A stretch of DNA of 64,000 nt, from the NCBI GenBank assembly GCA_029571225.1, contig JAKPTF010000035.1, positions 145,925 to 209,924 on the forward strand. The letters are read 5' to 3'. This DNA comes from Candidatus Omnitrophota bacterium. GTDB lineage: Bacteria > Omnitrophota > Gorgyraeia > Gygaellales > Profunditerraquicolaceae. Shown here piece by piece: positions 9,001 through 58,004 of this stretch. How positions within the stretch are numbered: position 1 is the stretch's first letter; each line of letters begins with the position of its first letter. The notes beneath the pieces are model-generated. The model saw only the letters and a program-made list of their open reading frames with translations. It did no database searches and was not told the origin of the DNA. A program made the position numbers and the translations under genes.

Positions 9001-12000
9001 CATGAAACGGTCAATGACAGTAAGTTCGTGATCGATCCTCCTGACCGCTTCAGGTGAGCGGTTATGCAACGTCCCTTCGCGCAGCCCAAACGCCTGTTCG
9101 ATCAATTTCTGCTTTTTATCGACCAGGGCCCTCAACCTATTCGCGTCAACCCTAAACAAATACTTATTGTCTTCTACCTGCAGAAACACCAGATCACTGC
9201 CTTTTTCTTTCTGCTGCCAGACCGGGCCGTTGATACGATATGACAGTGCCTCGTATTTACGGGCGGGCATGGCTGTCAGGACCTTTTCTTTAACAAGGCC
9301 TTTAAACAGCGTGCTGACTTTTTTATGCAGCCCGTTCTCTAACCCACCGTCCAGCGCAACGCCCCTGACATTAGGCGTTGCCAAGAACGTATTACGCGAG
9401 ATTGAATTCCCCGTGGATCTTGTAAACAGGGATGTGATGGCTGTGGAAAGCGCCCCGGACGTGTTCCGCAACATGCTGTCGAAGCTGCTCATCGGATATA
9501 ATTTGCCAAGTTTCAGTCCGTCCGTTGCGGGTATAAACCTCGCCAGTCCGTTCATTGAGAAGATAGAGCCTGATAACGTGCTTTGCGCCAAACTGCTCGC
9601 GGCCTGCCGCAAAGATCTTGCTTTCATTGTCAAAGACGACCAGATGCTTGAGCGTAACGCTCTGTCCCGTTGCGAAATTAACCATGATACACCTCCGTGT
9701 ATTAGAGAACGCAGGCCGCGTAACCAAGAGGGGTCAGTCTCCTGGAGGTTTGTTGGAGCTCTTAGCACACGGCCCGCGTTCTCTACATATTCTGCCATCT
9801 TTTGCGCTTTGCCTGCCCAGGCAAACCCGACCGCTGATGGCGTTAATCCTTGACCCGATATAGTTGCAAGAGCGGCCCTGGCACCGGCAACCAGCCAATC
9901 TACCCCACCAGCCACGGAAGGAGTTAGATAGTGCGCCGGCGCAGGGCCGCCCTGTTGAATGCGAGCCGCTGCCTTATTCTTCACACCTGCCACGGTAGGT
10001 AGAATTTGCGCGAGCGGCGTCGAAATAAATGCCGTCCATAAGGAAGCTAACGCACCTGCCACGGTAGGTCGTTTCCAGGACGGCATAAGATCAAAAGCTG
10101 TCCCATCAGAAATCGAACTCACCTGCCACGGTAGGTCGTCGAGATGGGACAGCAAATTAAAAAGTGCCTTCTTTGCCCTACCTGCCACGGTAGATAGGCG
10201 CGAAGGCACCGAAGCTATGAATTTAATAGTAAGGGTAATGAGTGCAGTGTAGGATGCGGCTTTTTCAGCGGCAAGGCGCGCGGAAACGCGCGAGGCATTG
10301 ACGATCGCAAGGCGCGCGGTATTGACTGCCTTGGCCGTCTTGTGGACGACGCGCAGGACCATTGCCACCACGGCGCCGACAGCCTTGGAAGACCGTTTCA
10401 CAACGCGGATGTACCCGATGATCGTTGCGGCAGAACCCAGCATGAGCATTGCCGCAATGACCGGCGGCGCCGTCGCCCACGGCGACATGGACAGGGCATA
10501 CTGGATCAGATTGGCTGATCCGAACAACGCCATGATCCCCGCATACGGCATGGCCATAGCGATCGAATCATCGTACGCGGCAACCGCGCGGCTTCTGACC
10601 AACGAGCCGAAATCAGGCGTTGAAGGAACCGTGGATCCTGTAGACGGGAATGTTTCTGTGGTCGTATGCGCCATGGACGTGCTCGACAATGTGCTGCCGG
10701 TATTCGCCCCAGACACTGTTCCATTTGTCGGTGCGTCCGTTGCGCGTAAAGACCTCGCCCGTGCTCTCATTAAGGAGATAGAGCCTGAGAATATGCTTGT
10801 TGCCAAACTGCTCGCGACCTGCCGCAAAGAGCTTGTTGCCGTTCTCAAAGACAACCAGGTGCTTAAGCGTAATGCTCTGACCCGTCGTGAAGTTGACCAT
10901 GATTCACCTCCATCGTTCTGAAGATCCTTCTTGGCCGTTTCTTCAGCGTATTTGTCTGCCCGGACAAAAAACGCCAACGGCCGAACAATAATATATGAAT
11001 ACGCTGCTTCAGCGTACATATGCGCAAAATGAGGAATCTTGGTGGGATCAGCGATTACTGCTTTTGTATCATCAATGACTTTCTTGATTGTCTGGGTAAG
11101 CTTGAAGGCGATGCAGCAGCCGAACGTCTTGAGGGATTTGACGATGCGGATGAAGCCGGTGGTAAATTTGTTGGTGCGGATCTTGGCAATGGAATTGAAT
11201 TTAATGCCACCGTCCGGAGGACCACGGATAAAACGCCCGAGAACGCTCATGATCCATTTTGCATCTTGCGCTGCCACCGATATATATCTTTGATAACCAT
11301 AATTCACCTTTGATACTTCATTCGCTATACCAGTATCGCTGCCGGCAACTTGGCCATTCTTCACGGCCACCGCGGCAACGACATGGTCTGCTGCATTAAC
11401 CGGCATGGCAGCAGCGTTGGAACCGCCGTCATGCACGCCGACTATGACATCGCTCAGCGAATTCCAGTTATTAGCCGCTATCTCATTCATGCCTTCGATT
11501 GCCGCAGTAACATCAACATCTTCTTCATGGACGGCATAGAAGTTCTCATTATTCTTGTTGATCTTGACCAGTTCTCTTGTTTTGCCATTGGTAATAATAA
11601 TCTCTTCTCCGCCGTTGCGATACGCTTTAAGCTGGCCGTTGTTCATATACGATGCGGCAAAGAGAATATCAGTCAGAGAAGCGAGTTTCTGATCGCCATT
11701 GTGATCCACCTCTTTAATACTTGCGACGGCAGCGGCCAGATCAGAAGCTTCTACTTTGATTAACTTTGCAAGTTTCTGTACACCGCTGTTGTCATTCAAC
11801 GGATTATTTTGTTTTGCTTCGCTAAATTTTGGCTCTATTTCAGCGAGGATCGAAGCAAATGATTTTTCAAGTTCTTCAATCGTGGCCGTGTTCGCGTCAA
11901 CGAGATTTGCCGGGTACATTCTTAAGCTTTCTAAATCAATCTGCGCCTGTTCAATCATAAACATCATGCTCTGATACTCGGCGACCGCTAACTCCCTGCT

Positions 12001-15000
12001 ATCCTTCAACATGCGCTTTAATGTGATTTGTGTCGTGTGAACACGACCAAGGGTATTTTTGAAATTATTAACCACGATTGCCTCGTTATTGGTCGTATTC
12101 TGCGGATCAAGGTAGCGGATAAATCTGTACACATTGGCACCAAACGCTGTCCCTTCTTTTTCGATCTGTGTCGATCTATTATGCATAATGGCGGCGATAA
12201 GTCCGACTTTTTCGGCATCCATGCCTTCAATCGCCCTGCCTACAATTCTCAATGATCTGATAGATTTGTCAAAATAGACGTTGCCGACCGACCTGTCAAA
12301 TACCAGGTGTTCACCATGCTTCGGCAGCTCAATCGCGTCACTGACAAAGCTCATTTCACTGCCCAATGGGGTGAAATCAATGACTCTCACGTTGCCATCC
12401 GCAAAGGTAACGCCCAGCACCAAGTGGGTCCTTCCCGGCAGACCATTTTCCATTCTTATGACTTTCAGATCGTTCGTATTTTTTCCTAACACATAGCTCA
12501 CCAGCATTGCGATCTGGGTATGGGTGACGCATCCCGTTGTTGGTTTATAATCTCCTGGCCGGCCCTGATAAATATTTCTGAATGTGAACATATCTGGATC
12601 ATACTCATAGGTGCCGCGGACGATATAGCCGACAGCGGCGTATACATTCTTTTCGATTGCCGTTAACTCTGCACGTGCGATTATCGACACTTGACCATCG
12701 ACCTCGATCTTATTCTTCGCTTCAAAATACCTGCTGATCCAATATGCAACTAAAGAATTGTCAAAGACTTCCTCAACAACCTTCCGGATAGCCTCAGGAT
12801 CCATACCGAGCTCATTGACCAAAGCTCCTGCTATAGTGGCGGAAAGTTCTGACGTCATGCCTTCGATGTCTGACAATGTTAACGTATTCGATCGCCTGGC
12901 CTCAAGGATCTTATTGATCATGTCTTCAGTAACGCCTTCTATTTTGCTGAGCGTTTCCTTAACCTGCTTATCGCTGACAAGATAGGCTGAATCATTAGCA
13001 AGCAGCCACAAGACAACTTCAAGCTCTTTAGTATGCAAGAACTTCTCGACCGCTGCGGCCGCATCGATTGCCGCGATGTTTTTAAGATATTTAGTGCTGA
13101 ATGCCCGCGCATACTTCGCAAACTCAAGGCCAGTATATATATCAAGATTCAGGCCGCGCAGTGCGTTCAATAACTCAGGCGACGCTGTTCCAAAGATATC
13201 TTTCGCTTCAAGGTTGCGCCTTCTAATCGACTGTAAATCAGTTCCCGGCATTAAAAGACCCATAAGCAACTCTTCGTTATCTTCGTTCAAACCAAGCTTA
13301 TGAGCCAAGGCGGAAATCGCCTCAGCTGACTCATACATGCCATACTCAGCGCGTTCAGCCATATCCTTGAGGGCCTGACGGGCTTCTTCGTCATCAGTAA
13401 TCCACAGGCCGGCGACCGCCAGGATCAATTTTTTGGTGAAATGCGCTTCTTCGATATTTGGAAGATTTGAAAGTGCTGTGATCTGCAATTTCCCTGCAGC
13501 TTCAAGCTTGCTGATGGCAATAACAACCTGGTCGTTCAGTTTCCTAGACGAGAGCATGAATGCGGCGTCATGAATATCAGCGGCATTGAGTTTAGTTCGC
13601 AGAACAATGAATTCCTCGATGGACAAAGGTTTTAACTGATCTTCAACCAGGATCATTTTAATGGCTTCGGAAATCTTACGGATATCGTATGCCGTTGTGT
13701 TTTCCTGGCCTGGCTTAGGTTTTATCTTCTTTTCGATATATGCCTCAAGCTTACTGTATGTCTCAAACCCGATCTGTTTTGCGGCCATGAACTTCCGTAC
13801 GCCTTCTTCCGATTTGATCTTATCTCTAAACCCAATTTCATCTATCGTAGGCAGAGCAAAAGGCTTGCCCTTGTTCTTATTTAAAATATTCTCGATCAAT
13901 TGAGTAAGGGCAACATATTTTAAATGGAGGGGATTGATCTCCGCAGCCATTTCAGGAGAAACCTGCGGGAATAATTTCATAGCAGCATCCATATCGGTAT
14001 CAAACAGTGTGCCTATGACCTGATCCGCATTCTTATTATCAGCCATCAATACAAGCAGTGCTTTGCCAGCAGGCTCAAGCTTCGCCGTTACGGACAATCC
14101 CTTTGCCCAGCCGGCTTTCATCGCGTTGCCAATAACGCTTGTAAAGGAATTAAAGAGGTTATGTTCTTCGGAATACCGTTTTATGCTTTCACTGATGCTA
14201 TTTTTAAATTTCTCTTTCCATGCAGCTCCACCTTCTCTTCGCAGCGTTCTAAGGCCGAGCGGACCATTGGTTTTAGAATTAAATTCTGCAATCCCTCTGA
14301 AAAATGCGTATGAAGTGCCTAAAACCGTCGCGGCAGCAATAAGATTGCGCGTGATCACGTTGCCAACCTCCATGAGTCCGCGCTCTTTAATGCCTCTTAT
14401 TGCTTCAGAGATAACGGCTTCGTCCCGGACCTTTTTGCGATAATCATTAACACCTGCTGGAATCGCAGCAATTGCTCCCAGAACGCCCAGGATGTTTGAA
14501 AGCACCGGCCAACGGGAGCTATACATGGCTTTTACTTGCGGATCCTGTTTATTCAAGGTTTGCATTATACTGGCAACAACGCCTCTTTCTTCCCCGTTTC
14601 TGAATCTTGTCTGCTCTTTAATCGATGCCGCAATACCCTTCTGGATATTATAATTGCTTACCCGCGCCTTCTGCAGGGCGTCATAAGCAGTTTTGGCATC
14701 GCCGTTGTTCTCCGCCATCAACTTGTTCGCTTTCGCGACCTCCACCACCGCCTGCGCGGCGACTTCGTTCAAATTCTTTGCACTCCTTTGAGGGAGGAGC
14801 ATGTTCTCTAAATCTGCTTTCAGATATTCCATTGCGGCAAATTTCACGACTTCAACAACATCGAATCCTCTTAGACCGGATAATTTCTTTATGTTGCTGA
14901 CGCGTTCCGGGTTATCGCCTGTAAATTCAATCTTACCAGCTCTGATATCCTTATCGGCATCGAGCCATGATTTAATCATGTCCTGCTGCGTTTCGTTCAA

Positions 15001-32909: not shown

Positions 32910-33042
32910 CCTTATCGAAAAGCCTGCTCTCAGGAGCGGGAAAGCCACGGGGTCAGACAGAAAAAGGGTGCAGGATTTTGCTTTTTAAGGCCGACCGGGT
33001 TGCCGAAATAAGGAACTTTCGCAATCCGGATTTTTATTTTTT
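32910..33042 (+). promoter_or_regulatory. c-di-GMP-I-like riboswitch plus terminator (copy 3; non-GNRA P1 loop variant)
   Basis: CCUUAUCGAAAAGCCUGCUC-UCAG-GAGCGGGAAAGCCACGGGGUCAG...GACCGGGUUGCCGAAAUAAGG. Terminator arms are CCGGGUUGCCGAAA 32995-33008 and UUUCGCAAUCCGG 33017-33029, followed by AUUUUUAUUUUUU. Confidence 0.65.
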
Positions 33043-34822: not shown

Positions 34823-35713
34823 ATGTTTACGAAAACAGCACGTTTCGCAGCCGCAATGGTATTGGTCACAGCAATGACAATCGTGTCCATGCCGATCGGA
34901 ATAGCTCATGCTGAATCACTGCACTGGGGACAGCGCCAGCAGGAGAACATAATGCCCGCCAGCCCGGTGCACACCGGCGCAGTAGCCGGCAACGGCCAGG
35001 ATCTCGATGCGCTTATCGTAGCTGGCGGCAAGGCGCATACAGGGCTGGTTGTAAAAGCGCGTCATGATGATGCGGCGGTTGCCGAAGAAACAGGAAGCGA
35101 TCTGTCTGATGAAGCCCGTGTCAGAATATACGACGGCAACGGCAATTTTATCGGCTGGCAGGAAGTGGATATTGTCAGGGACGATGCAGGCAGAATCATC
35201 AAGCAGACGACCGTGACCTTTGACAAGGACGGCCACAGGATCAATTCCAGCATCAAGACATTTGAATATACGCTCGATGACAAAGGAAATGTCGCGTCCG
35301 TGAAGGTAACGCGCACAAAAGACGGGAAAGTCGTCTGGACTGCAGAACATACATTTACCCGCGATGAGAACGGGAAGGTCACTGAGCGGACGGCGACTTT
35401 CAAAGATGCCAACGGCAAGGTGATGTTTACTGCCGTTCAGACCTATACGCGCGATGACAATGGCCGCATCACTGAAAGCACTATTGAAAGAAAAGACGCC
35501 AAGGGCAAACTCCTTAGCAAAGACAGTATCAAATACACCTATGGTGAAGATGGCAAGATCAAAGAACGCACGCTGACACGGACCAACGCGCAGGGGAAAA
35601 CAATATTTGAATCGACCCGGACATTCAAGGACGGAGTCCTTCAAAAAGACCTAATCAAGCGTTTCAATGAAAAAGGAGATTTGGTCCGCAAAGAAATTGT
35701 CAATTATCACTAA
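34823..35713 (+). CDS. Secreted protein with YD/Rhs-like beta-hairpin repeats, 296 aa
   Basis: AGGGAGGG SD 3 nt before ATG 34823. Signal peptide MFTKTARFAAAMVLVTAMTIVSMPIGIAHA. Repeats such as FTRDENGKVTERT, YTRDDNGRITEST and YGEDGKIKERT. The track ORF (from 34310) is a 5' over-extension. An in-frame ATG at 34520 is a possible alternative start. Confidence 0.6.
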   Translation: MFTKTARFAAAMVLVTAMTIVSMPIGIAHAESLHWGQRQQENIMPASPVHTGAVAGNGQDLDALIVAGGKAHTGLVVKARHDDAAVAEETGSDLSDEARVRIYDGNGNFIGWQEVDIVRDDAGRIIKQTTVTFDKDGHRINSSIKTFEYTLDDKGNVASVKVTRTKDGKVVWTAEHTFTRDENGKVTERTATFKDANGKVMFTAVQTYTRDDNGRITESTIERKDAKGKLLSKDSIKYTYGEDGKIKERTLTRTNAQGKTIFESTRTFKDGVLQKDLIKRFNEKGDLVRKEIVNYH

Positions 35714-35729
35714 CAATAAGGAGGAAAAC

Positions 35730-38378
35730 ATGTTCACGCAAAAGTTCAGGACCATCGTAACACTGGTATTGCTGATAACCATGACGGCGGTCAGCATGCC
35801 GATGAATGTCGTTCAGGCAGAAACAACGCCGGCAGGCCAGCAGAACAGCACGGTCATGCCTGCGGCACGGATCAAACACCGGGACTTCATCCACCGCATA
35901 GTTCCGGGAAACGAAGCGGCTGCCCCAAAAAACACAGTCGGGGACGGCGAGCTCTCTGAGGATCCCCGCGTGCAGAAACCGGAAACAAAAAAATTATCGG
36001 CAGAAGAACAAAAAGAACTGAAAAAAATCTTCGGGGTAGCGCCGGTAACATCCAAAACGGTCACCCTCTGCGGCGGCACGACCGTTTCGTATTATGACAA
36101 AGACGGCAATCTCGTCGGCACATTCAAAAAGACGACCGGCACGCAATACGACATTCTTGGCGCGTATTATGACAAGAACGGCAAGTTGATCACGCGCGAG
36201 GGCACGGCATTGACGCCAGAACAACAGGCGGCGTTAAAAGAGATATTCGGCACAGCGCCGGCCTGGAGTGTCGAAGGACCGCACTGGATAACAACGTCGA
36301 TACCGCCGAGCTCAGGATACACGATCATGTATTATGACAAAGACGGCAATTTTCTCGGCGAGAAAAGGGTTTCGGATACCGGCTCCGGCGTTCATTCGGA
36401 GACGTATTACGACAAGGACGGCAAAAAGATCGACACGACAGCGAATGTCGAGATCAAACCCCCGGTTCGTCCGCCTGATACGGAAACAGACATCAAGGTC
36501 TGGACCCAGTATTACAAGGATTACGTCGCCTATATCAATAAATTGGACGACGTATCCATGAAGAAACAGGCATGGGAAAGCCTCGGCAATGACATCCTGA
36601 AGCTTTCCAGGGAACATCCGGAGCTTATTTCCGCCGGAGCCATTAACGCAGTGATGTCGGCCATGACTGCCGAGTTGAAGAAAATCTATCGCGATGACAG
36701 TTATAAATTGGATCTGTCAAATGCGCAGGCGTCAGTCGTGAAGGCTGCTTTAAACCTGGTCAAAAGCGATGCGTTCAAAGCAATGGACGACGCAACGCAG
36801 AGCGCCATAGGCCATTATTTCATGGCCCTCGGCGTTGAATTAACCTGGTTAAGCGCTAACAATAAGACCAACAGCGCCCTGTATCCCAAGATAGCGGAGT
36901 TCTTTAAGACGCTTCTGGAAAACGGCTCGAACCAGGTCAAGGCGCAGGCATTTTGCCAGCTTATGAACCTGTGGCGGATCGGCCACTGGGGATCGAAAGA
37001 AGGTAACCGGGACGAAGTCAATAAGATCCTCAAGCAGGCGCTTAATATCGAGGGAGGCATCCAGGGCCTTGTCAACAAATGGATAACCGGCCTCGATGAT
37101 GAATCCCTTGACGCCGACAGCCGGGGCAACATGGCCAACGCGCTTGCGCAGGCGATCTGGCACAGCGACGCGTTGAACGAGGCCAGCAACACGAAATTGT
37201 CTGATGCGGACCGGACGAAGATAGCCAACAAGCTCACGGCATTCGTCAAAGGCGTCAATGACGGCTCCATCAAGGTCTCGGCTGGAGTGCGCAACGGCAT
37301 GATCCATTGCATCGGCTGCGCGCTGTCCACGCTGTTTAACGAAGGCAAGGGCGCCACGGACTCGACCAAAGCGCTCACGAACGCCTATATCTCGTTTGCG
37401 CAGAAATCCCTGCTTCTGTCTGCGGATGAGGGCGGCTGCGTCACCATCCAGTCATCGGCAATCAATCTGCTGACGCATCTCAAGGATGTCGCAAAAGCAA
37501 AAGGACTTGAGGGCGTTGTTGAGAAATGCACAAATGTCCTTCTCGACAAGGATTTCGACCTCGAGGGTTTTGTCGATAAAGCGCGCAAAGAGATGAACGC
37601 AACGGCCAACGCGGACCATGCTGCGTTTGTCGCGCGGGCGCTGGCGAATATCGAAACAATCAACCTGGCCAATAACACAGGCAAGGTTGACGCCAAGATG
37701 GTCAAGGAAACCATAGCTGATATCAAGGCGTGGATCACGGTCCCGGAGCACCTGAAAGACATGCGCCACCGGGACTGGCAGAGAAGGCTCTATGACGCAC
37801 TGACAGCGCTTCTGAAACAGGCCTACAAAAAAGGCTCAACGCTCGGCGATGACAAGGCGATGCAGGAGAATATCGTCGCGATCTTCGGCACGATATCGGG
37901 CCTGAAGGATTCGCTTGTCAAGAAGTTCGCCACTGCCGATATGAACAGCCTTATCAAGCATCTCAAGTCCGAAGGCTTCAAGGACCTCGCTTACAAGATC
38001 GAGATGATCTCGTGCACGAGCTCCGAGGCGCTCATGAAAAAGGCGTGGGATTATTACAACGACAAAGACTACGCTGCGGCAAAGGCGTTCGCCCAGGAGT
38101 GTATCGACCGTTACGGCGAGGAAGCGCTCAAACAACAGGCGTCATTGAAGGATTTCGCGCCGAAAGGCCAGGAATCCAAATACTGGGCGCTCAACGACGT
38201 CGCAACAGCGTACTTCATCCTTGGCGAGATATACTCAAAGCAAAAGAACTATGAAAAGGCAAAAGAAGCATACAGGACAATCATCAACAAGTTCGGTTTT
38301 GCCCAGTGCTGGGATCCGCAAGGCTGGTATTGGAAAGTCGCAGATGCGGCAAAGAAAGCGCTCAAGGAGCTCCCATAA
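35730..38378 (+). CDS. Secreted repeat protein, 882 aa, with a C-terminal TPR-like domain shared with 43799..46324
   Basis: AAGGAGG SD before ATG 35730. Signal peptide MFTQKFRTIVTLVLLITMTAVSMPMNVVQA. YYDKDGN(L/F) repeats. The C-terminus reads ...QQASLKDFAPKGQESKYWALNDVATAYFILGEIY...FAQCWDPQGWYWKV. Confidence 0.65.
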   Translation: MFTQKFRTIVTLVLLITMTAVSMPMNVVQAETTPAGQQNSTVMPAARIKHRDFIHRIVPGNEAAAPKNTVGDGELSEDPRVQKPETKKLSAEEQKELKKIFGVAPVTSKTVTLCGGTTVSYYDKDGNLVGTFKKTTGTQYDILGAYYDKNGKLITREGTALTPEQQAALKEIFGTAPAWSVEGPHWITTSIPPSSGYTIMYYDKDGNFLGEKRVSDTGSGVHSETYYDKDGKKIDTTANVEIKPPVRPPDTETDIKVWTQYYKDYVAYINKLDDVSMKKQAWESLGNDILKLSREHPELISAGAINAVMSAMTAELKKIYRDDSYKLDLSNAQASVVKAALNLVKSDAFKAMDDATQSAIGHYFMALGVELTWLSANNKTNSALYPKIAEFFKTLLENGSNQVKAQAFCQLMNLWRIGHWGSKEGNRDEVNKILKQALNIEGGIQGLVNKWITGLDDESLDADSRGNMANALAQAIWHSDALNEASNTKLSDADRTKIANKLTAFVKGVNDGSIKVSAGVRNGMIHCIGCALSTLFNEGKGATDSTKALTNAYISFAQKSLLLSADEGGCVTIQSSAINLLTHLKDVAKAKGLEGVVEKCTNVLLDKDFDLEGFVDKARKEMNATANADHAAFVARALANIETINLANNTGKVDAKMVKETIADIKAWITVPEHLKDMRHRDWQRRLYDALTALLKQAYKKGSTLGDDKAMQENIVAIFGTISGLKDSLVKKFATADMNSLIKHLKSEGFKDLAYKIEMISCTSSEALMKKAWDYYNDKDYAAAKAFAQECIDRYGEEALKQQASLKDFAPKGQESKYWALNDVATAYFILGEIYSKQKNYEKAKEAYRTIINKFGFAQCWDPQGWYWKVADAAKKALKELP

Positions 38379-38432
38379 CCAAGACGCTTTAGCTATCTGT
38401 TTAGGCAGCAAGTAGTTACAAAACAATTCTTT
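38379..38432 (+). repeat. REP-like element R1
   Basis: CCAAGACGCTTTAGCTATCTGTTTAGGCAGCAAGTAGTTACAAAACAATTCTTT begins immediately after the stop codon at 38378. It is the inverted partner of 43422..43475. Confidence 0.7.
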
Positions 38433-38505
38433 TTGCACGAATTTAACAATCAAGGCGGGCTGGGCCCGTTAACCCCTTTTCGGGTTCAGCCCTGTCCTTG
38501 CTAAT

Positions 38506-38564
38506 GTTAACAGAAGCAAAAGTTGGGTTATACACCTTGAAATTCCATATATATAGGGTAAACT
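38506..38564 (+). promoter_or_regulatory. Upstream box plus promoter (module copy 4)
   Basis: GTTAACAGAAGCAAAAGTT 38506-38524; -35 TTGAAA 38537-38542; a weak -10 TAAACT 38559-38564. Confidence 0.5.
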
Positions 38565-38638
38565 TATTATGAAGCAAGCAGTTTCTTAGGGGGCTTTAAA
38601 AAGATCTGGGGTCAGGTCGAAAAGGGGGAAGAAATCAT

Positions 38639-38749
38639 CCTTATCGATAAAGCCTGCTGTCAACAGCAGGAAAGCCACGGATCTTGAAGAAGCTTTCAAG
38701 CAATAACCGGGTTGCCGAAATAAGGAATGGCAAACCGGTTTTTTATTTT
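38639..38749 (+). promoter_or_regulatory. c-di-GMP-I-like riboswitch plus terminator (copy 4; non-GNRA P1 loop variant)
   Basis: CCUUAUCGAUAAAGCCUGCUG-UCAA-CAGCAGGAAAGCCACGGAUCUUGAA...UUCAAGCAAUAACCGGGUUGCCGAAAUAAGG. Terminator arms are AACCGGGUUGCC 38705-38716 and GGCAAACCGGUU 38729-38740, followed by UUUUAUUUU. Confidence 0.65.
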
Positions 38750-38785
38750 ATGCGCGAAAGCATTTCCCATAACCCGAGGAGACAT

Positions 38786-41700
38786 ATGAAAACCTTTAAG
38801 AAATTGCTCGCAGTAACAATGGCAGCGTCGCTTGCGCTTCAGCCGGTGTTCGCCGGCAACGCCTTTGCTTCTATTGAAGGATTACTGGCTTCATACGGAG
38901 GAAGCATTCCGCCGTCCAGCGGCGGAGGCGAAAGCACCGGCTCGGAATCCGGCTCCACCCAGGGAACAGGCGGACGTACTTTCACTTCGCCATATTCGAG
39001 CGATTACGTCAAACAGCTTATCGCCGACTACAAGAGCGAGCACAGCTTTACGCCTGTTTCGTTCACTCCGGCATCCTATACGCCGATGTCGTTCAGCAGT
39101 TCGCCGCTTGCCGAGCGTTTCACACCCGCGGCAATAAGCACAACCCCTTTGTCGACGCGCTTCGGCACTGATCCTTTGACTAACTTCGGAACAACCGGCA
39201 TTGATACCACAAACCTTCTATCACGATTCAATACTGCCAGCTTCCCTACAACCTCCTTCGGCACGACCAATCTTTTGTCGAACTACAACGCCTCAAGCTT
39301 CGATACGACAAACCTCCTGTCGCGATTCACCTCGAACAACTTCGCTTCCACGAAGCTTTTGAACACCGCCGGATCTCAAACGCCGTCTTTGACGCTGACA
39401 AGCCAGCAGACGCCCCGTATTGCTTTAAACACCGTCAACACGAATAATCTGGCTACCGTAAACGTCGCCGCCAGCCAATACAGACAAGCCTCATGGGCCA
39501 CCGCGACCGTATTTACCAATACCTTTGACCTGAACAACGACCTCAAGGTCGATTCGAACGATATTGCGCAGATGAAAGATCTTAACGGCGATACTGCAAT
39601 AGACGCAAAAGACACAGCGCTGTTCAATAACATCATTAATTTCGACACCATCTCCGCCGCCCAGCAGATCATGACGGTCCAGCAGCTTGCGCCTGCCTAC
39701 AGCGCCGCACTGATCGGCACGCTTGTCTCCCAGGAGCAAACCGCAGCTGCCGTTACGATATACGATAACATTTCCGCGCAGAAAGCCGTTGCGATCGGCA
39801 ATGAGCTCGCAAAAACGGAGAACGGCCAGGCAGCTGCTGCGGAAATCCTGGCGACCATGGCCGGCACCATGAGCATGCGTGACCGCGCGGCAAGCATCAT
39901 CAACTCCATGGCTCCCGCTTCAGCAGCGAGCGTCCTGGCGCGCATGCCGACAACTGCCTCCATTACGATCGTCAAGAACGATAATACAACCAATGCTGGC
40001 GCGATCCTCAAAGAACTGTCAAAACTCCAGGGCGGCGCAAAGATCGCCGCGGCGATCCTGACTAACATGGCAGGGTCTGTCCAATATATCGACCGCGCCA
40101 GCTCCATCCTCAATGATATGGAAGCTTCCGCTGCGGCGAATATCGTCAGGGAAATGGATAAATCCGCTGCCGCAGCGATCATCAGGAACGGGAATATGAC
40201 CGTTGCAAGCGCGGCCAAGATCTTCAATGAGCTCGCAAAAACAAGCTCGGACAACACCGGCATCAACATCATCAGTGCCCTGCTCAATGTCAAACAGACA
40301 GCGGCGCAGAGCCTCACCAACGCAAAGATGGCGTCCATTTTCAGCGCCATGGAGCCCGCGGCGGCAGCCGGTTATTTAATGGCATGCGAGGGGCTGCGCA
40401 GCGTCGTCAACATCCCCGCGGTGATCCTGGGCAACGGCAAGATGAGCACAGAGCAGGCAATCAAAATAGTCAATGAAATGGCCAACACGGCGGCAGGTGC
40501 CTCGCTTGCTGCATCGACGCTGATGGAGGTATATTCCAATGCGCCGACACAGGCAAAGGCAACAGCCATATTGAAAGGGCTGTCTTCAAGCGCCCAGACC
40601 GCGGTCAAACAGGCACTCGGGACCGCGAATACCAACAAGATACTCGGCACGACCTCAACCGCTACAACGACATCGACGACGAATCAGGCCAGTACAACGA
40701 CTTCTACGACGACTACCTCAACCACAGCTGCGACAACCGCAGGGACCACCTATACATTGTCGCAGATCGCAGGTAAAACCATCCTGCCCGGCACGATTAT
40801 TGACGACGGCACGAATAAATACGTTGCGACCCAGCAGTTCGCCGCCGGCGCGAACGGATCGATCCCCGAAACGATCAGATTTAACAAAGTCGGGGGCCTC
40901 ACCGGAGAGCATTTTATTTACAGCGGCGGAGCTTTTACCCAGGTGACATTCGTCAACGGCAGTTCGTATACCGCAGCTGACGGAACAAAATATACCGCCC
41001 TCTCTTCTTTCACGCTCGACGGCGGGAAGCTGCCGAAGGATGCGCTTTTAAAAGACTCAAGCGGCAAGGTCTATAAGACTGACGCCGCGGGCGCGATCGG
41101 CAGCGCGGTTACGGTCTATGCAGCTACAGGCGCCGCAGGAACGAAGATAGCCGCAGGTTCGGTCGTGCTTGTGGATGGGAAATATTACGTCACGACAAAG
41201 GAAGTTACTTATACGAGCGCCGGTAAACTGCCGGTTGGCGAGGCATATAAGAACGGCTGGGTCAATTATATGATGGACCCTCGCGGCGCCATGCGGGCGG
41301 CAGGATATAACGATACGACCGAGGTCATTAAGGACATGCAGACGGAAGCGACGCTGCAGAAATGCCGTGCGGCAGACGAAACGTTCCCGGATGGCGGCAT
41401 CACGATATTCTGGACTAATGAAGAAGCAATACCGGTCCAGGACCTTAACCTGTATGTGCCCGGCTGGGACCTGCGCATGCTCATCACCGCCGATTTTGAC
41501 AATGACGGCGATGTGGAAACGCAGGATTGGGATATGGACCCTGCCATGGTCAATACGCTCGGGCGTTCCATAGACCTGGACATGCCGGCTGAGCTCGACG
41601 GCAAAACGGTCACTGTAGCTTTTTACGTCGTTGACGCGAAGGGCAACCCATTAATAACGACGACGGATGCCCAGACAGGGAAAACGACCTGGGCCTTCGG

Positions 41701-43423
41701 CACAGCGAAAGATACGGCGTATGTGTTCGGCGCAGGCGTGCCGAACCTGCCCGGAACGGCGATCACCTTTACCGTAGACCGCGACCCGTCAAAGGGCGAG
41801 CAACTGCCTCAGGTCACCGGATACAAGGTCAGCGGCGGAAATTTAACCCTGCAGTTCGCGTCGGAGTTCCACCCTTCTTCTTTTACGGCATTCTATGTTG
41901 TGGTAAACGGGAAATATACGCAGATCTCGGATTTCAAATATTTTCTCTCTGACGATCTGCGCACGATGACTATCCCGGTGAGCGCATTTGGCATCAGCAT
42001 CGGCTCCGGCGATAAGGTCCAGATCGTTGCCAAGGAATGGACCGCAGGCATGACCTTGCTGCAGACAGTCATCCCGGGAAAAACAACCCCGACGACACCA
42101 ACTACGCCGACATCAATCAAGGTCGGCGATTCCGTCACCATCGGCAATAAGAATTACGTTGCCAAGACCGCGTTCACCTACAATACCGACGGCACTATCC
42201 CTGCTAACGTCGTATTGAACGACGCACAGGGCAGGCAGTTTACCACCACTGCCACCGGTATGGACCAGAACAGTTATCTGGCAGGCGATCCTATCAAGAT
42301 CAATAATGTGGATTACACAGTCACCACTGCTTTCTTCTACAACGCCCAGGGCAAGATCCCCCAGGGCACCAAGTTCACGGGCGCTGATAACAAGATCTAC
42401 GTCGCTGACGCCACTGGAAGCCTTAAATTGGAGACATCTTCTCAACCCGTACAGGTAAACGTTGGGGATCCCACGGTGTTTGATGGAAAGACATACTATT
42501 TTCAATCAGCTTTCACCTCGACCGGCAAAATCCCCAACGGCATACAGCTTAAGGACGATGAGGGCAGACTGTTCACCGTTACAGCGGACGGCCTCCAGCA
42601 GAACAGTTTTCTCGTCGGCGATCCCATCAAGATCAATAATGTGGATTACACAGTCACCACTGCTTTCTTCTACAACGCCCAGGGCAAGATCCCCCAGGGC
42701 ACCAAGTTCACGGGCGCCGATAATAAGATATACGTCGCTGACGCCACTGGCGCTCTGAAGCTTCAAACAAACCCAACCAACCAGACAGTGACGCTGACTG
42801 ATGGAACGGTTCTGACAGCTACAACAAATTATACTCCGGCGGCTAATGGGCAAATCCCTGCGGGAGTTGAGTTTACAGATCAGAAAGGACACACGTTCAT
42901 ATCAACAAGCAATGGCTCGTTTAGGCAAATAGGATTCAAAGCCGGCGATACCATCGAACTCACTGACGGCACAATCCTCGCTGCTTTGCAGGATTACACG
43001 GTGACCGGCGATAATATGCCTGCTAATGTCAAGTTTACCGATACCCAGGGCCATACGTTTATTACGACTACTGACGGCATGTTCAGGCAGATCGGGTTCA
43101 AGGCAGGCGATACGCTCGAGCTCACTGACGGCACCATCCTCACTGCTTTGCAGGATTACACGGTGACCGGCGATGACATGCCCTCAAACATCAAGTTCAA
43201 AGACGCAGCTGGCAGGCAATACATTACCACTGATGATGGATTCCGGCAGCTTTCGTACAAGGCAGGGGACCAAATTGAGCTGGTCGGTGGCACGAAATTA
43301 ACCTCCTCTTCTGACTTTACTGTTACTTCAACTGGAGACTTCCCTGCAGGCATAGAATTCACTGATAGCCAGAATCAAAAGTGGGTTACAACAGAAGATG
43401 GCAGCTTTAGAAAAGTCATATAA
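38786..43423 (+). CDS. Large secreted repeat protein, 1,545 aa
   Basis: GAGGAG SD before ATG 38786, with signal peptide MKTFKKLLAVTMAASLALQPVFAGNAFA. The track start at 38684 overlaps the riboswitch terminator. Contains a dockerin-like EF-hand pair DLNNDLKVDSND...DLNGDTAIDAKD (~39524-39645). Also contains Ala-rich helical repeats (~39700-40400, MgtE_N-like, low confidence), a Thr-rich linker, and ~13 tandem ~55-58-aa repeats through to the C-terminus. Confidence 0.7.
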   Translation: MKTFKKLLAVTMAASLALQPVFAGNAFASIEGLLASYGGSIPPSSGGGESTGSESGSTQGTGGRTFTSPYSSDYVKQLIADYKSEHSFTPVSFTPASYTPMSFSSSPLAERFTPAAISTTPLSTRFGTDPLTNFGTTGIDTTNLLSRFNTASFPTTSFGTTNLLSNYNASSFDTTNLLSRFTSNNFASTKLLNTAGSQTPSLTLTSQQTPRIALNTVNTNNLATVNVAASQYRQASWATATVFTNTFDLNNDLKVDSNDIAQMKDLNGDTAIDAKDTALFNNIINFDTISAAQQIMTVQQLAPAYSAALIGTLVSQEQTAAAVTIYDNISAQKAVAIGNELAKTENGQAAAAEILATMAGTMSMRDRAASIINSMAPASAASVLARMPTTASITIVKNDNTTNAGAILKELSKLQGGAKIAAAILTNMAGSVQYIDRASSILNDMEASAAANIVREMDKSAAAAIIRNGNMTVASAAKIFNELAKTSSDNTGINIISALLNVKQTAAQSLTNAKMASIFSAMEPAAAAGYLMACEGLRSVVNIPAVILGNGKMSTEQAIKIVNEMANTAAGASLAASTLMEVYSNAPTQAKATAILKGLSSSAQTAVKQALGTANTNKILGTTSTATTTSTTNQASTTTSTTTTSTTAATTAGTTYTLSQIAGKTILPGTIIDDGTNKYVATQQFAAGANGSIPETIRFNKVGGLTGEHFIYSGGAFTQVTFVNGSSYTAADGTKYTALSSFTLDGGKLPKDALLKDSSGKVYKTDAAGAIGSAVTVYAATGAAGTKIAAGSVVLVDGKYYVTTKEVTYTSAGKLPVGEAYKNGWVNYMMDPRGAMRAAGYNDTTEVIKDMQTEATLQKCRAADETFPDGGITIFWTNEEAIPVQDLNLYVPGWDLRMLITADFDNDGDVETQDWDMDPAMVNTLGRSIDLDMPAELDGKTVTVAFYVVDAKGNPLITTTDAQTGKTTWAFGTAKDTAYVFGAGVPNLPGTAITFTVDRDPSKGEQLPQVTGYKVSGGNLTLQFASEFHPSSFTAFYVVVNGKYTQISDFKYFLSDDLRTMTIPVSAFGISIGSGDKVQIVAKEWTAGMTLLQTVIPGKTTPTTPTTPTSIKVGDSVTIGNKNYVAKTAFTYNTDGTIPANVVLNDAQGRQFTTTATGMDQNSYLAGDPIKINNVDYTVTTAFFYNAQGKIPQGTKFTGADNKIYVADATGSLKLETSSQPVQVNVGDPTVFDGKTYYFQSAFTSTGKIPNGIQLKDDEGRLFTVTADGLQQNSFLVGDPIKINNVDYTVTTAFFYNAQGKIPQGTKFTGADNKIYVADATGALKLQTNPTNQTVTLTDGTVLTATTNYTPAANGQIPAGVEFTDQKGHTFISTSNGSFRQIGFKAGDTIELTDGTILAALQDYTVTGDNMPANVKFTDTQGHTFITTTDGMFRQIGFKAGDTLELTDGTILTALQDYTVTGDDMPSNIKFKDAAGRQYITTDDGFRQLSYKAGDQIELVGGTKLTSSSDFTVTSTGDFPAGIEFTDSQNQKWVTTEDGSFRKVI
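42287..42750 (+). repeat. Near-identical intragenic duplication (131 bp twice, offset 333 bp)
   Basis: 42287-42417 and 42620-42750 are about 97% identical. Both encode DPIKINNVDYTVTTAFFYNAQGKIPQGTKFTGADNKIYVADATG. The few differences I saw are synonymous third-position changes. Confidence 0.85.
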
Positions 43424-43475
43424 AGAATTTATTTGTAACTTATTGCTGATAAAATAGATAGCTAAAGCGTCTTCA
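43422..43475 (-). repeat. REP-like element R2 (inverted copy of R1)
   Basis: The reverse complement reads TGAAGACGCTTTAGCTATCTATTTTATCAGCAATAAGTTACAAATAAATTCTTT. It overlaps the last 2 nt of the stop codon (43421-43423) of the 1,545-aa gene. Confidence 0.7.
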
Positions 43476-43605: not shown

Positions 43606-43753
43606 TCTTATCGATAATCGCCAAACCCATCGTAAGGTGGGGACGGAAAGCCACGGATCGAGTAAGAATAATCATCGCAGACTTTCTCTCTGCATTCGAT
43701 AGCCGGGTTGCCGAAATAAGCAGTAATATTTCGCAACTCGGTTTTTTGTTTTT
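43606..43753 (+). promoter_or_regulatory. c-di-GMP-I-like riboswitch plus terminator (copy 5)
   Basis: UCUUAUCGAUAAUCGCCAAACCCAUC-GUAA-GGUGGGGACGGAAAGCCACGGAUCGAG...UUCGAUAGCCGGGUUGCCGAAAUAAG. Terminator arms are CCGGGUUGCCGAAAUA 43703-43718 and UAUUUCGCAACUCGG 43727-43741, followed by UUUUUUGUUUUU. Confidence 0.75.
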
Positions 43754-43798: not shown

Positions 43799-46324
43799 AT
43801 GATCAACAAATCCACTCTCACAGTCGCCGCATTCATCGCAGCAATCCTTGTTATGCCGCGTTTTGCTTTTGCCGAAGGCGAAGCAGCTGCCTTAGGCCAG
43901 GCAGTCGATCTGACCGGCGGGTCCCTTCCCGAGGAAATACGGAATTTCACCGGCGTCGGTTCAGGCGCGTCTTCGTGGGATTATTTGAGCCAGAAGATAT
44001 CCTACGGCTATTATGTCGAAGTGTATTCGCATTTCGACGCCCTTGCCAAGTCAAAGGTCGACAGGCGCAACGGCATCGAGGACCTGGTCGTCGCTTCGTA
44101 CGGCACGGACGCCAAGGCGAACCTCGCCATTGCAGACGTCAAATTCAATCAGGATTACGCCCAGCACGTCATGGCAACGGAATTTGCCCAGCGCTCGGGC
44201 CGCGGAACCCAGATCGCCAACACCTACACCCTCAACACCTACCTGCCCCATTCTGACGGCAGCGTCGAATATTTCAAGGACGGATTGCTGGCGCGCGTTG
44301 ACAATCAGCGCTCAGTGGACGAATTCGGAAATGTCTCAATAAAAAATCTCTATAATTTTGAATATGACCTGGACCGCCGCCTCATGCTTAAACACGAATA
44401 TGACACCACTGACAGCCGCGGCCTGAAAACACACGGCACGTTCACCTGTTCCTATACGGCGGATTCGGTGTTCTATGGCAGCGATGAGACCAACGCGAAC
44501 AAGCATTATGCCTCTTATACGGTCACGGAGACCGACTCCACCGGCAGGGTCATAACCACGACATGGACCGCAGGCGTCTATGAGGGCAAATACCTGCGCG
44601 ATTTCACGCAGACGAATTTCGATTCAAAAGAAGGCACCAGCACATTCAAGCGCTTTAATATCCAGTATTCGGCTCCCGGCCAGATCAGCTCATATGACGA
44701 GACCGGCGTCGGCAACCACATCGAAGGCGAGGACGGGACGAACGTACCCTTCACCTACACCTTGAGCCGCACAAACATCACCTATTATGGCGGGCAGGTC
44801 GCAGGATACGACGAAGTCCGCTACGACATGCCTGCGAACATGGAAGAAGCTGATTTTGACGCCGATCTGAGCAAATGGGTCAAGACCACCACCCATGTCA
44901 CCATGGAATACCTGGACGTTCCTTCCCAGTTCGGCGAGGATGTCGATCCTGACGCGCCGCGCCTGAAGAAAACAACCATCGTTTCGCACACAGAAAAACC
45001 CGACGGCTCTTATGACGACAGCACGGCCGTGACCGAATATACCTATGACAACACATATACCCTCACCGGCGGCACCATCCACACCGAGATGTCCGGACGC
45101 GGTTCAGAAACTATCGAATATACCTTTACGGACAAAGACGGGACGACCCACATCCTGACGCGCACCGAGAAAGACGGTGTCGTGAAATTCACATACACGG
45201 ATGAGGACGGCAATGAAGTCGAGGTTGCCGAAGCGGACGTGGTTACCGAAATCAAGCCGGCGGCGGATTACAGCGGATACACGGACACGGTGCTTGAGAT
45301 CGTGAGCGGCACGCCGATGGCCAAAACGACGACGTCCCACACCGAGTTCAGAGGCATTGCGGACGACCCGGAGAACGGCACTAAGGCCGGGGATATCATA
45401 CGGGTCGAGGATTCGACCGTCACCTTTACCAACAGCGTGGTCGGGTATTTCCCGCGCGTCATTTCTTCAACCGAGGTCACGACTACCGGCTTCCCTGTGA
45501 CCGACCCGGACAACGAGCACCAGTCAAAGAAAAGCATCACTACCACCTTTACCTATGACGCGAACGGCTTTTTAACCGGTGCGTCAGGCGAAGGATATGA
45601 GGAATCGTGGTCATATTCATCGGAACAAGGCTGGAACACCCATATATACGCCAAATACACAGTCGCATATCAGGTTAAGCTTGATAAAGCGCTCAATATA
45701 GCCACATACGTGCAGTGGGTCCCGGTCCCCAGCGCCGCTGAGTTAACAGAGCTGGGCATTACCGAAGAACAGTTCAAGGCGTATATGAGAGGATATTTCA
45801 AACTGCATCCGCCGGAACCCAAAGGCGACGCCACGACATTCGAGATGGACAACCCGTTCATCATCGACGGCAAATACGAGATTCCGAGCGATTTTGACGA
45901 GGTCGTCGCGATCGGCGAGTCGGACGAACCGGTCGCGCCTGCCGCTGACCCGTTCGCGGGCTATGACGAGCAGTCGTTGATGAAACAGGTATGGGGGCTT
46001 TACGACGCCAAGGACTACGCACGCACCGTCGATTTCGCCAATGAGGTCATCAAACGCTACGCCGAAACCGCGCAGGAGCAGCAGGCCTCATTAAAGGATT
46101 TCGCTCCGAAGGGCTCGGAATCGAAATACTGGGCGCTCAATGACGTGGCAATAGCGTATTACCTTAAAGGCAAGGTTTTGCTTGCGCAGGGCAAGACCGA
46201 TCAGGCAAAGAAACAGTTCCAGGCGGTCCTGAACAAATACAGCTTCGGGCAGTGCTGGGACCCGCAGGGATGGTTCTGGAAAGTTTCAGTTGCGGCAAAG
46301 GAAGAACTTGATAAAATAGGCTAA
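43799..46324 (+). CDS. Secreted repeat protein, 841 aa, with the shared C-terminal TPR-like domain
   Basis: GGAGG SD and signal peptide MINKSTLTVAAFIAAILVMPRFAFA. Thr/Tyr/Asp-rich YD-like repeats. The C-terminus reads ...QQASLKDFAPKGSESKYWALNDVAIAYYLKGKV...FGQCWDPQGWFWKV. Confidence 0.65.
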   Translation: MINKSTLTVAAFIAAILVMPRFAFAEGEAAALGQAVDLTGGSLPEEIRNFTGVGSGASSWDYLSQKISYGYYVEVYSHFDALAKSKVDRRNGIEDLVVASYGTDAKANLAIADVKFNQDYAQHVMATEFAQRSGRGTQIANTYTLNTYLPHSDGSVEYFKDGLLARVDNQRSVDEFGNVSIKNLYNFEYDLDRRLMLKHEYDTTDSRGLKTHGTFTCSYTADSVFYGSDETNANKHYASYTVTETDSTGRVITTTWTAGVYEGKYLRDFTQTNFDSKEGTSTFKRFNIQYSAPGQISSYDETGVGNHIEGEDGTNVPFTYTLSRTNITYYGGQVAGYDEVRYDMPANMEEADFDADLSKWVKTTTHVTMEYLDVPSQFGEDVDPDAPRLKKTTIVSHTEKPDGSYDDSTAVTEYTYDNTYTLTGGTIHTEMSGRGSETIEYTFTDKDGTTHILTRTEKDGVVKFTYTDEDGNEVEVAEADVVTEIKPAADYSGYTDTVLEIVSGTPMAKTTTSHTEFRGIADDPENGTKAGDIIRVEDSTVTFTNSVVGYFPRVISSTEVTTTGFPVTDPDNEHQSKKSITTTFTYDANGFLTGASGEGYEESWSYSSEQGWNTHIYAKYTVAYQVKLDKALNIATYVQWVPVPSAAELTELGITEEQFKAYMRGYFKLHPPEPKGDATTFEMDNPFIIDGKYEIPSDFDEVVAIGESDEPVAPAADPFAGYDEQSLMKQVWGLYDAKDYARTVDFANEVIKRYAETAQEQQASLKDFAPKGSESKYWALNDVAIAYYLKGKVLLAQGKTDQAKKQFQAVLNKYSFGQCWDPQGWFWKVSVAAKEELDKIG

Positions 46325-57059: not shown

Positions 57060-57925
57060 CCAAGACGCTTTAGCTAACCACTTCCATAGCAATAAGATAC
57101 AATTTAATTCTTTTGCTTTGTTTTTGGCCGTCCCCTCCGTAAGGATATAATCCTGCCATTCCCCTTGATGAGCCTCTGAATAAACATCTCATCCCCCTGC
57201 GGCGTTTTCATATCCTCCCAACGCGTGTTATCCACATCATTATATTTCTGCAGAAAATGGGTATATGCCTCTTGCCGTTGCGCCTTTTCAGTGCCGAGGT
57301 CTTCATACATAGGATCCGTTGTCGTAATGCCATCATCTATGCCCAAACAATAAAATCGAGCGCTGCCATACGTATAATCAGATGCAACAGTTACGATCTT
57401 GTCCTTAACCGGATTATAATCGATGTACCTGCCGCACGAAAGCATGTAATTTTCTTTCTGAACAGGCTTTGACTGAAATCTGCCCTGCCATAAATATCCG
57501 CACCCTTTATATCGTTTATGAAAATATTTAGTATACGCTAAGGAAATGCCGGCAATGGCCCGTGACAACTTTTCAGGATCCACCAGTTCAAGAAGAAGAT
57601 GGTAATGGGTAGGCATGATGACCCAATGATAAATCCTGAGCGAAAACATAGCAATATATTTCTTCAGAATAATGCAGAAATGTTCATAATCCTGTTCATC
57701 ATAAAAGATCACTTTCTTAGAATTGCTTCTGTTATAAATATGGTAGGTTAACGAGTCAAACAATTGATACTTCCTGGCATATGGTGACATATCACACCTC
57801 CTTTGTCTAAATAGACGCGGGAACATGTAATATCTCACTATTTATTAATATTGATCCTGGAATTGTGAAATAAAGAATTGTTTTGTAACTCTTTGGGGGG
57901 TATTGGGTTAGCTAAAGCGTCTTCA
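57060..57925 (-). mobile_element. RAYT / IS200-like Y1-transposase unit bounded by inverted REP-like repeats R3 and R4
   Basis: R3 at 57060-57113 (CCAAGACGCTTTAGCTAACC...AATTCTTT). R4 at 57872-57925 (reverse complement TGAAGACGCTTTAGCTAACC...GTTACAAAACAATTCTTT). Together they flank the HUH/Y1 gene. R4 ends 1 nt from the 3' end of tRNA-Glu. Confidence 0.65.
57104..57790 (-). CDS. REP-associated tyrosine transposase (RAYT) / IS200-family Y1 HUH transposase, 228 aa
   Basis: AAGGAGGTG SD before ATG 57788-57790 (the track ORF is extended to 57838). HUH motif in MPTHYHLLL and a catalytic-Tyr region GYLWQGRFQSKPV. Confidence 0.75.
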   Translation of the reverse strand: MSPYARKYQLFDSLTYHIYNRSNSKKVIFYDEQDYEHFCIILKKYIAMFSLRIYHWVIMPTHYHLLLELVDPEKLSRAIAGISLAYTKYFHKRYKGCGYLWQGRFQSKPVQKENYMLSCGRYIDYNPVKDKIVTVASDYTYGSARFYCLGIDDGITTTDPMYEDLGTEKAQRQEAYTHFLQKYNDVDNTRWEDMKTPQGDEMFIQRLIKGNGRIISLRRGRPKTKQKN

Positions 57926-57926
57926 T

Positions 57927-58004
57927 TGGTAGCCCCAACCGGATTTGAACCGGTGTTTAATGGCTGAGAACCATCCGTCCTGGACCGGGCTAGACGATGG
58001 GGCC
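57927..58004 (-). tRNA. tRNA-Glu (anticodon CUC), CCA encoded
   Basis: Hand-folded as GGCCCCA-TC-GTCT-AGCCCGGTCCA-GGAC-G-GATGG-TTCTCAG-CCATT-AAAC-ACCGG-TTCAAAT-CCGGT-TGGGGCT-A-CCA. The TCGTCTAG...CCAGGAC D-arm is typical of tRNA-Glu. Confidence 0.85.

Follow-up and report, generated by a model that had tools for sequence, protein, structure and literature searches.

The window analyzed here is a 64-kb stretch of contig JAKPTF010000035.1 from a Candidatus Omnitrophota bacterium. A gene for a 1,545-amino acid (aa) protein, referred to below as the big gene (38786-43423, + strand), is bracketed in this window by two inverted copies of a 52-nt repeat arm, designated A and B. Upstream of it lies a gene for a 903-aa protein and downstream a gene of the type called 841-like below. 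Two further arms of the same repeat, C and D, enclose a gene for a Y1/HUH tyrosine transposase elsewhere in the window. An initial annotation had described the bracketed 5.1-kb segment as a cassette that might have been shuffled or inserted with the help of the repeats. The evidence assembled below leads us to regard A and B as probably independent solo members of a dispersed family associated with the Y1/HUH transposase at 57104-57790, with A as the later addition and with no mobile cassette at the locus.

Four repeat arms in the window

Searching the window with the 18-mer AAGACGCTTTAGCTATCT at up to three mismatches returned exactly four matches, at 38381 (+), 43473 (-), 57062 (+), and 57923 (-). 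Shuffled sequence gives an expectation of 0.05 matches, and four were reached in 0 of 100 shuffles. The inverted repeat pair initially described around the 1,545-aa gene is therefore real. An inverted-repeat search of the window recovered the A and B arms as a pair of 57 nt that is 82% complementary and separated by 4989 nt, and the C and D arms as a pair 758 nt apart.

Copies A, B, C, and D align over 52 nt without indels and share a common layout. A 15-nt outer box (AAGACGCTTTAGCTA) is followed by a loosely conserved spacer of 21 nt and an inner box of about 17 nt (TACAAnnnAATTCTTT). The outer box contains GACG/CGTC, the conserved end of the arm being AAGACGC, and an 8-bp palindrome (TTAGCTAA) can be read within it. 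Single arms folded as single-stranded DNA (ssDNA), on both strands, displayed no palindrome of the repetitive extragenic palindromic (REP) type, with z-scores of -0.7 to +1.4 relative to shuffles, and GTAG occurs at neither arm end. An isolated arm thus forms no hairpin and is not a palindromic REP.

Arm A (38381..38432, +) begins with its outer box 2 nt past the stop codon of the 903-aa gene. The initial annotation had the repeat start immediately after that stop codon; the TAA does lie at 38376-38378, but the conserved element itself starts at 38381, after a CC dinucleotide that is also found in copy C. Arm B (43422..43473, -) has its outer box toward the next leader motif (43477), while its inner end overlaps the big-gene stop codon (TAA, 43421-43423) by 2 nt, as originally noted. 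The outer ends read ...AGCTAAAGCGTCTT in B and AAGACGCTTTAGCT... in A, and the DNA just beyond the bracket on the arm-B side is CATTAATGTTAA. No decayed partner arm was detected beside A or B with a hidden Markov model (HMM) of the family, down to E = 10.

On the stop side of the transposase unit, the outer box of arm C (57062..57113, +) begins 5 nt past the stop codon of a HlyD-family gene, and the transposase stop codon falls within the inner box of this arm. Arm D (57872..57923, -), on the promoter side, has its outer box 3 nt from the last base of a tRNA when the CCA end is read in the sequence; by Rfam tRNA coordinates (from 57930) the gap is 6 nt.

Pairwise identity is 85% for A-B, 81% for B-C, and 79% for A-D, and 73% for each of A-C, B-D, and C-D. 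The proposal that each pair is more similar within than between thus applies to A-B and breaks down for C-D, which lies below both B-C and A-D. The hexamer variants are as described initially, with AGCTAT common to A and B as opposed to AGCTAA.

The transposase and its locus

The transposase gene (57104..57790, -) encodes a RAYT/TIRYT-like Y1/HUH tyrosine transposase of 228 aa, counted from the ATG at 57790. Its product matches Pfam Y1_Tnp (E 1.5e-11), and its score against NCBIfam REP_Tyr_transpos is sub-threshold (64.8 bits; cut-off 80). Similarity to the E. coli TnpA-REP structure (PDB 4ER8) is weak (E 0.007), with the HUH (HYH), WQxRF, and YxxxNPVK motifs in register. The protein family is very large: with a limit of E = 1e-3, the search gave 21,941 cluster representatives. 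Among the best matches, full-length architectures of about 220-240 aa are common, and the top homologues share the C-terminal extension of the 228-aa protein.

Arms C and D flank the transposase gene in inverted orientation, and the same arrangement occurs at L007/L026 and L028/L037, giving three lineages. The complete locus (HlyD gene, transposase, tRNA, and both arms) is present in the related metagenome-assembled genome (MAG) JAGOOP01, at about 84% nucleotide identity, and in the L011 lineage; the transposase at the equivalent MAG locus shares 86% aa identity. No second transposase copy was found in 0.5 Mb of element-enriched sequence. The 3' end of the tRNA adjoins the transposase unit both in the window (57930-58004) and in L007 (1059-1136, with the arm at 1140 and a 3-nt gap by ARAGORN), where ARAGORN assigns the orthologous tRNA as tRNA-Glu (Glu-CUC). 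None of the other repeat sites examined lies beside a tRNA, a position confined to the transposase locus.

A dispersed family of dimers and solo arms

A scan of species-representative genomes located the element in the MAG JAGOOP01; across the transposase region, contig 3 of this MAG shares about 84% identity with the window. Outside the transposase locus and the A/B orthologues, all copies identified there with the family HMM are tight inverted dimers of 116-155 nt, arranged as outer-inner, loop, inner-outer. A metagenome scan added further dimers and solo arms in other genomes. After dereplication, the loci fetched provided 40 non-redundant arms from dimers and solos combined. Relatives contain at least 10 non-redundant tight dimers, and most of their non-redundant sites are of this kind; the 64-kb window contains none. 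Exact-pattern matches in Psychrosphaera, Bacteroidia, and human-gut contigs were rejected as chance, given that only the outer 15-17 nt agree.

Folded as single strands, the dimers form long hairpins (z-scores -4.7 to -20.6) in which outer box pairs with outer box and inner box with inner box, and the spacers mostly form an internal loop. The two arms of most dimers diverge strongly in the spacer, with 6-13 of 21 positions matching and 8-15 of 21 different. No target-site duplications were seen by eye around dimers. One dimer, at 7029-7153 of L003, has 100% identical arms and forms a perfect 52-bp palindrome, the sole dimer of this kind; it is either very recent or homogenised.

The distribution of the family shows a preference for gene 3' ends. 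Measured on a crude gene map, a stop codon is overlapped or lies no more than 5 nt from one edge in at least 12 of about 20 non-redundant units. Among 38 arms, 10 have TAA at positions -5 to -3 beyond the outer box, compared with 4.4% of random positions, an enrichment of about 6-fold. A preference for A-[T/C]-[G/C] is seen in the three bases that flank this box externally. Solo arms in other genomes have their inner end 5-12 nt from the stop of unrelated CBM96-domain genes and lack an inverted partner arm. These observations support the second suggestion of the initial annotation, that the repeats home to gene 3' ends. They also show the repeats at numerous gene ends whether or not a cassette structure is present, a pattern that the same annotation had set against its own cassette.

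Taken together, these features outline a possible mechanism. The transposase would recognise the hairpins formed by paired arms and cut beside the outer box, with tight inverted dimers as its presumed substrate. By analogy with IS200/IS605 elements and RAYTs, the dimers would travel in single-stranded form and enter intergenic DNA beside TAA-N2.

The repeats could alternatively be unrelated to the transposase and serve as binding sites of a host protein or as transcription signals at gene ends, their presence around the Y1 gene being coincidental. A dimeric DNA-binding protein would suit the palindrome TTAGCTAA, and almost every orthologous copy retains an unchanged outer box despite drift in the spacers; the proximity to stop codons is equally compatible with such a role. 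We nevertheless consider this account highly improbable. Inverted arms occupy both flanks of the transposase gene in three lineages, and the dimers, the lack of target duplications, and the presence or absence of A are traits of Y1 non-autonomous mobile elements (PMC3116915, PMC3733652).

Synteny and the empty site of arm A

A homologue search with the big protein returned four proteins, all from this locus or irrelevant, and an exact-match query with it retrieved a single 7-kb metagenome contig, identical to the window. The order 903-like gene, big gene, 841-like gene is found in the window, L010 (the MAG), L011 (a JGI contig), and L052, which represent four Candidatus Omnitrophota lineages. 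Identity of the big protein to that of the window is 59% in L011 and about 52-54% in the more distant lineage L052/L051. Arm B lies at the big-gene stop codon in L010, L011, L052, and L051. Arm A directly follows the 903-like stop codon in L010 (9021-9072) and L011 (9652-9703). In L052 the big gene and B are present and A is undetectable, so the two arms were not acquired together.

The difference is confined to a 68-nt segment (38379..38446, +) that consists of CC, arm A, and TTGCACGAATTTAA. This segment is absent from L052 and L054, and TAA stands at both of its junctions. L052 reads TAA/CAATCAGGG followed by a hairpin, and the window reads TAA/CC..A..GAATTTAA/CAATCAAGG followed by the same hairpin. 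In L052 and L054 this conserved hairpin directly follows the stop codon, and the extra 68 nt occur in the window, L010, and L011; A was therefore inserted upstream of pre-existing local sequence. The clean empty site in L052 thus concerns A only, with the big gene and B retained, and not the 5.1-kb block whose synteny the initial annotation had proposed to compare.

The hairpin itself (about 38450..38500, +) is GC-rich, carries the loop GTTAACCCCTTTTCGG, and represents the 3' hairpin of the upstream 903-aa gene. It comprises 19 pairs, 8 of which show compensatory changes across five lineages, and lacks a T-run; it is more than a generic terminator. Arm A is accordingly an insertion that separates the 903-aa gene's stop codon from the 3' hairpin belonging to this gene, and the bracket takes in part of the neighbour's transcription unit. 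The bracket thus holds more than the one promoter-riboswitch-gene unit described initially. Barring precise excision of A in L052, arms A and B differ in age.

No second copy of the promoter-leader-gene unit was found. Within the four lineages, the big-gene unit shows no positional variation and the A..B segment no inversion, and neither a target duplication nor a compositional anomaly was found. The GC content of the bracketed segment (0.52-0.555) is on par with its flanks. With fixed neighbours in four lineages, B without A in L052, and no second copy, the notion that such units are shuffled or inserted by means of the repeats is not supported.

In the reading that we prefer, arm B would have been at the big-gene stop codon since before the four lineages split. 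Arm A would have been added later, as the 68-nt insertion between the upstream stop codon and the upstream hairpin; that this was a gain rather than a loss is what we infer from the comparison. The inverted A/B orientation would then simply result from two insertions into adjacent intergenic regions, and the 5.1-kb segment would be a normal chromosomal gene that has its own leader and is inherited vertically. Accordingly, A and B are treated as solo members without a demonstrated role for the big gene.

Several further loci were considered for the history of the region. L054, which is more distantly related, lacks the big gene as well as the repeats, and both there and in L055 the 841-like gene directly follows the 903-like gene. 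When it was asked whether recombination between leaders had lost the big gene, the L054 leader scored 41 versus 50 against the window unit-3 and unit-4 leaders, which makes the two indistinguishable. The P0012 contig runs from a 1080-aa gene across 635 nt to an 841-like gene and might represent an empty site for the whole big gene, but the 1080-aa protein is not among the homologues of the 903-aa protein. L056 and L057 were uninformative, as the 903-like paralogue lies in an unrelated context. A 1,626-aa gene beside an arm in L031 was rejected as a homologue of the big gene, being unrelated.

A separate event is visible in L011, where a 1,156-bp IS30-like insertion (8498-9653; rve and HTH_38 transposase) lies exactly at the outer edge of arm A. 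It deletes the first two bases of the arm and represents an insertion sequence (IS) landing on a repeat end.

Similarity between the arms and competing explanations

A number of observations weigh against the interpretation of A and B as independent insertions. The spacer of A agrees with that of B at 15 of 21 positions, against a family mean of 9.5 (sd 2.2), which places the two in the top 5 of 465 pairs. The polarity of the A/B pair equals that of the transposase unit: outer to inner box, promoter, gene, and a stop codon that enters the inner box of the second arm. Arm identity tracks this polarity, with 79% for A-D and 81% for B-C compared with 73% for A-C, B-D, and C-D. The empty site in L052 could represent a loss, precise excision being possible for Y1 transposases, and the big gene itself may or may not be ancestral at the locus, L054 lacking both it and the repeats. 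Moreover, the dimer model gives no account of solo-arm insertion, and the survey of the source genome covers 64 kb.

Polarity is one argument for a different history, in which a cargo unit composed of A, the leader, the big gene, and B was built like the unit of D, transposase, and C. The Y1 transposase would once have moved it whole between the 903-like and 841-like genes, and A would later have been lost in L052 by precise excision or deletion. The entry of the stop codon into the inner box in both units, the resemblance of A to D and of B to C, and the AGCTAT subtype and the 15/21 spacer matches of A and B all agree with it, as does the situation in L054 and L055, with the 903-like gene directly before the 841-like gene and neither big gene nor repeats. 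The hairpin of the upstream gene is harder to accommodate, as it stands between A and the promoter and directly follows the stop codon in L052 and L054. L052 carries the gene and B without A, no second copy or positional variation appears in the four lineages, and the GC content is normal. Pairing of arms in ssDNA over 5 kb would also be far less likely than within dimers of 116-155 nt. On balance we give this history little probability. The broader claim that a Y1 (RAYT-like) transposase moves, or once moved, a complete riboswitch-controlled gene between two 52-nt arms, in the way its own gene is packaged, appears more doubtful still.

The spacer similarity admits yet another explanation, namely that A is an inverted local copy of B or that gene conversion between the arms is ongoing. 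The inverted arms would then act in cis on the big gene, for example if they paired over a long distance in read-through RNA or if the segment were inverted from time to time. A is the younger arm under this explanation too, and the A-B spacer similarity lies in the top 1% of family pairs. Compared by eye, the spacer of window B matches window A and L011 A at 15 of 21 positions and its own orthologues, L010 B and L011 B, at only 12 of 21. Arm B and the adjoining 15 nt on its outer side show 100% identity over 67 nt between L010 (14431-14497) and L011 (15270-15336), in surroundings of about 84% identity, and window B differs from both. The identity between the L010 and L011 arms suggests conversion or a recent exchange restricted to the arm; combined with the likeness of window B to A-type arms, it hints at gene conversion among arms. 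Other, unlinked arm pairs, however, also reach 15-16 of 21 spacer matches, and no inversion occurs in any of the four lineages. Arm A lies upstream of both the big-gene promoter and the upstream hairpin, so that it would enter the big-gene transcript only on read-through. We regard such local copying or concerted evolution as unlikely, and continue to favour two separate solo arms of the dispersed family.

Contents and surroundings of the bracketed segment

The big gene is an open reading frame whose C-terminal part contains internal repeats, and the N-terminus of its product, read from MKTFKKLLAVTMAASLALQPVFAGNAFA, looks like a secretion signal. In the 3' part of the gene (42218-43177), direct repeats of 200 nt share 87% identity at a spacing of 333 nt, and 162-nt tandem units occur. 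The MAG orthologue has a gap of 100 N that starts opposite window position ~42236, where the internal-repeat region begins.

Expression signals precede the gene. The leader motif TAATGTTAACAGAAGCAAAAGTT and then a sigma-70-like promoter (TTGAAA, 16 nt, TAAACT) occupy 38502..38564 (+). The motif GTTAACAGAAGCAAAAGTT is found just upstream of the promoter in four successive leader-gene units (31164, 32818, 38502, and 43477). Its conservation extends to L010, L011, and L052, and it probably serves as an UP-like element or as the site of a shared regulator.

A variant aptamer resembling the cyclic di-GMP (c-di-GMP)-I class follows at 38643-38720. It overlaps a terminator stem and T-run (38707-38745, read from the sequence), so that the whole leader structure spans 38643..38745 (+). 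The aptamer scores 29.5 bits against c-di-GMP-I-GGC (RF03167), which is sub-threshold relative to the gathering score of 59, and neighbouring canonical leaders at 43610, 31253, and 28616 exceed the Rfam threshold. The riboswitch named in the initial annotation is thus recognizable as c-di-GMP-I-like, but as a variant and not as a curated member of the class. Related variants scoring 25-30 bits occur in the window at 38643-38720 and 32913-33008, in L052 at ~4600-4690, and in L054 at ~13250-13385. They carry a plain hairpin (AAAGCC-UGC....GCR-GGAAAGCCACGG) in place of the GCAAACC...GGGACGC P1 arm, with a stem that co-varies between lineages, and their ligand may be different.

The genes that border the bracket (35667-38378 and 43799-46324) have only a C-terminal TPR-like domain of 116 aa in common, at 55% aa identity and 72-78% identity at the DNA level. 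They are partial paralogues.

Relation to known systems

The TIRtrons and their TIRYT transposases, as described in the passages of Di Nocera, De Gregorio, and Rocco 2013 (PMC3733652) compared here, offer the closest parallel. Shared traits are a RAYT-like Y1 gene, long terminal inverted repeats (TIRs) without GTAG, one flank that overlaps the 3' end of the gene, and a moderately abundant TIR family dispersed as singles, dimers, and groups. The arms found here are 52 nt long, 73% identical (C-D), and free of indels, with the transposase stop within the inner box of C. Their sequence is unrelated to the GGGGWSAS motif reported there. CGTC is treated in those passages as a tag of repeats without a dedicated transposase, yet the outer box described here contains GACG/CGTC in a family with an associated transposase gene. 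Candidatus Omnitrophota is not among the phyla named in the same passages, the full species list of that paper being unchecked. The length of the present protein, 228 aa with its C-terminal extension, would be compatible with a TIRYT protein. Subclasses of TnpA-Y1 with atypical, non-GTAG flanking structures have also been described by Quentin et al. (PMC6006769).

Resemblance to REPIN-RAYT systems (Bertels & Rainey 2011, PMC3116915; Nunvar 2010; Bertels 2017, PMC5581495) includes an apparently single-copy and probably vertically inherited Y1 transposase between inverted repeats and non-autonomous inverted doublets that form hairpins, are extragenic, and occupy sites that are stable across related genomes. 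The arms here differ in being non-palindromic and in lacking a 5' GTAG, where a GTAG/GTGG tetranucleotide would be expected. The arms of a dimer diverge in the spacer, and the copy number appears modest. The protein is also longer than E. coli TnpA-REP (228 versus 165 aa) and falls below the NCBIfam RAYT cut-off.

With IS200/IS605 elements and their miniature derivatives (PATEs) the system shares the HUH/Y1 catalytic core and the absence of target-site duplications, and insertion beside a short flank, here TAA-N2, is compatible with insertion guided by a target tetranucleotide. Those elements, which lack terminal inverted repeats, carry subterminal hairpins at both ends on one strand, and their transposase is multi-copy. 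The present system, in contrast, has non-folding inverted arms of 52 nt and a transposase at one conserved locus.

Integron cassettes and composite transposons likewise place a single gene between related repeats, with one repeat directly at the stop codon. Neither an integrase nor a folded site of the attC type at each gene is found here; the gene has its own promoter and leader, its position is fixed in four lineages, and the repeats are of different age. Overall, among RAYT-like systems the TIRtron/TIRYT type is a better match for these features than are classical REPs.

Biological significance

The cassette idea fails the comparison with related genomes and carries little weight in itself; the repeat family is the more useful by-product. 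If the cargo history were true after all, domesticated-looking systems would be vehicles that shuffle second-messenger-regulated surface-protein genes. What emerges for Candidatus Omnitrophota is a well-delimited, low-copy repeat family of the TIR type together with an apparently single-copy Y1 transposase. The parts of the literature compared here contain no mention of such systems in this phylum, although no search aimed at earlier descriptions was made. The family combines 52-nt arms that are not palindromic, a 15-nt outer box that is invariant, a dated polymorphism in which A is present or cleanly absent, and a strong tendency to land near TAA stops. These traits could help settle whether CGTC-tagged repeats have a dedicated transposase, and could throw light on substrate recognition by RAYT-like enzymes that do without classical REP hairpins.

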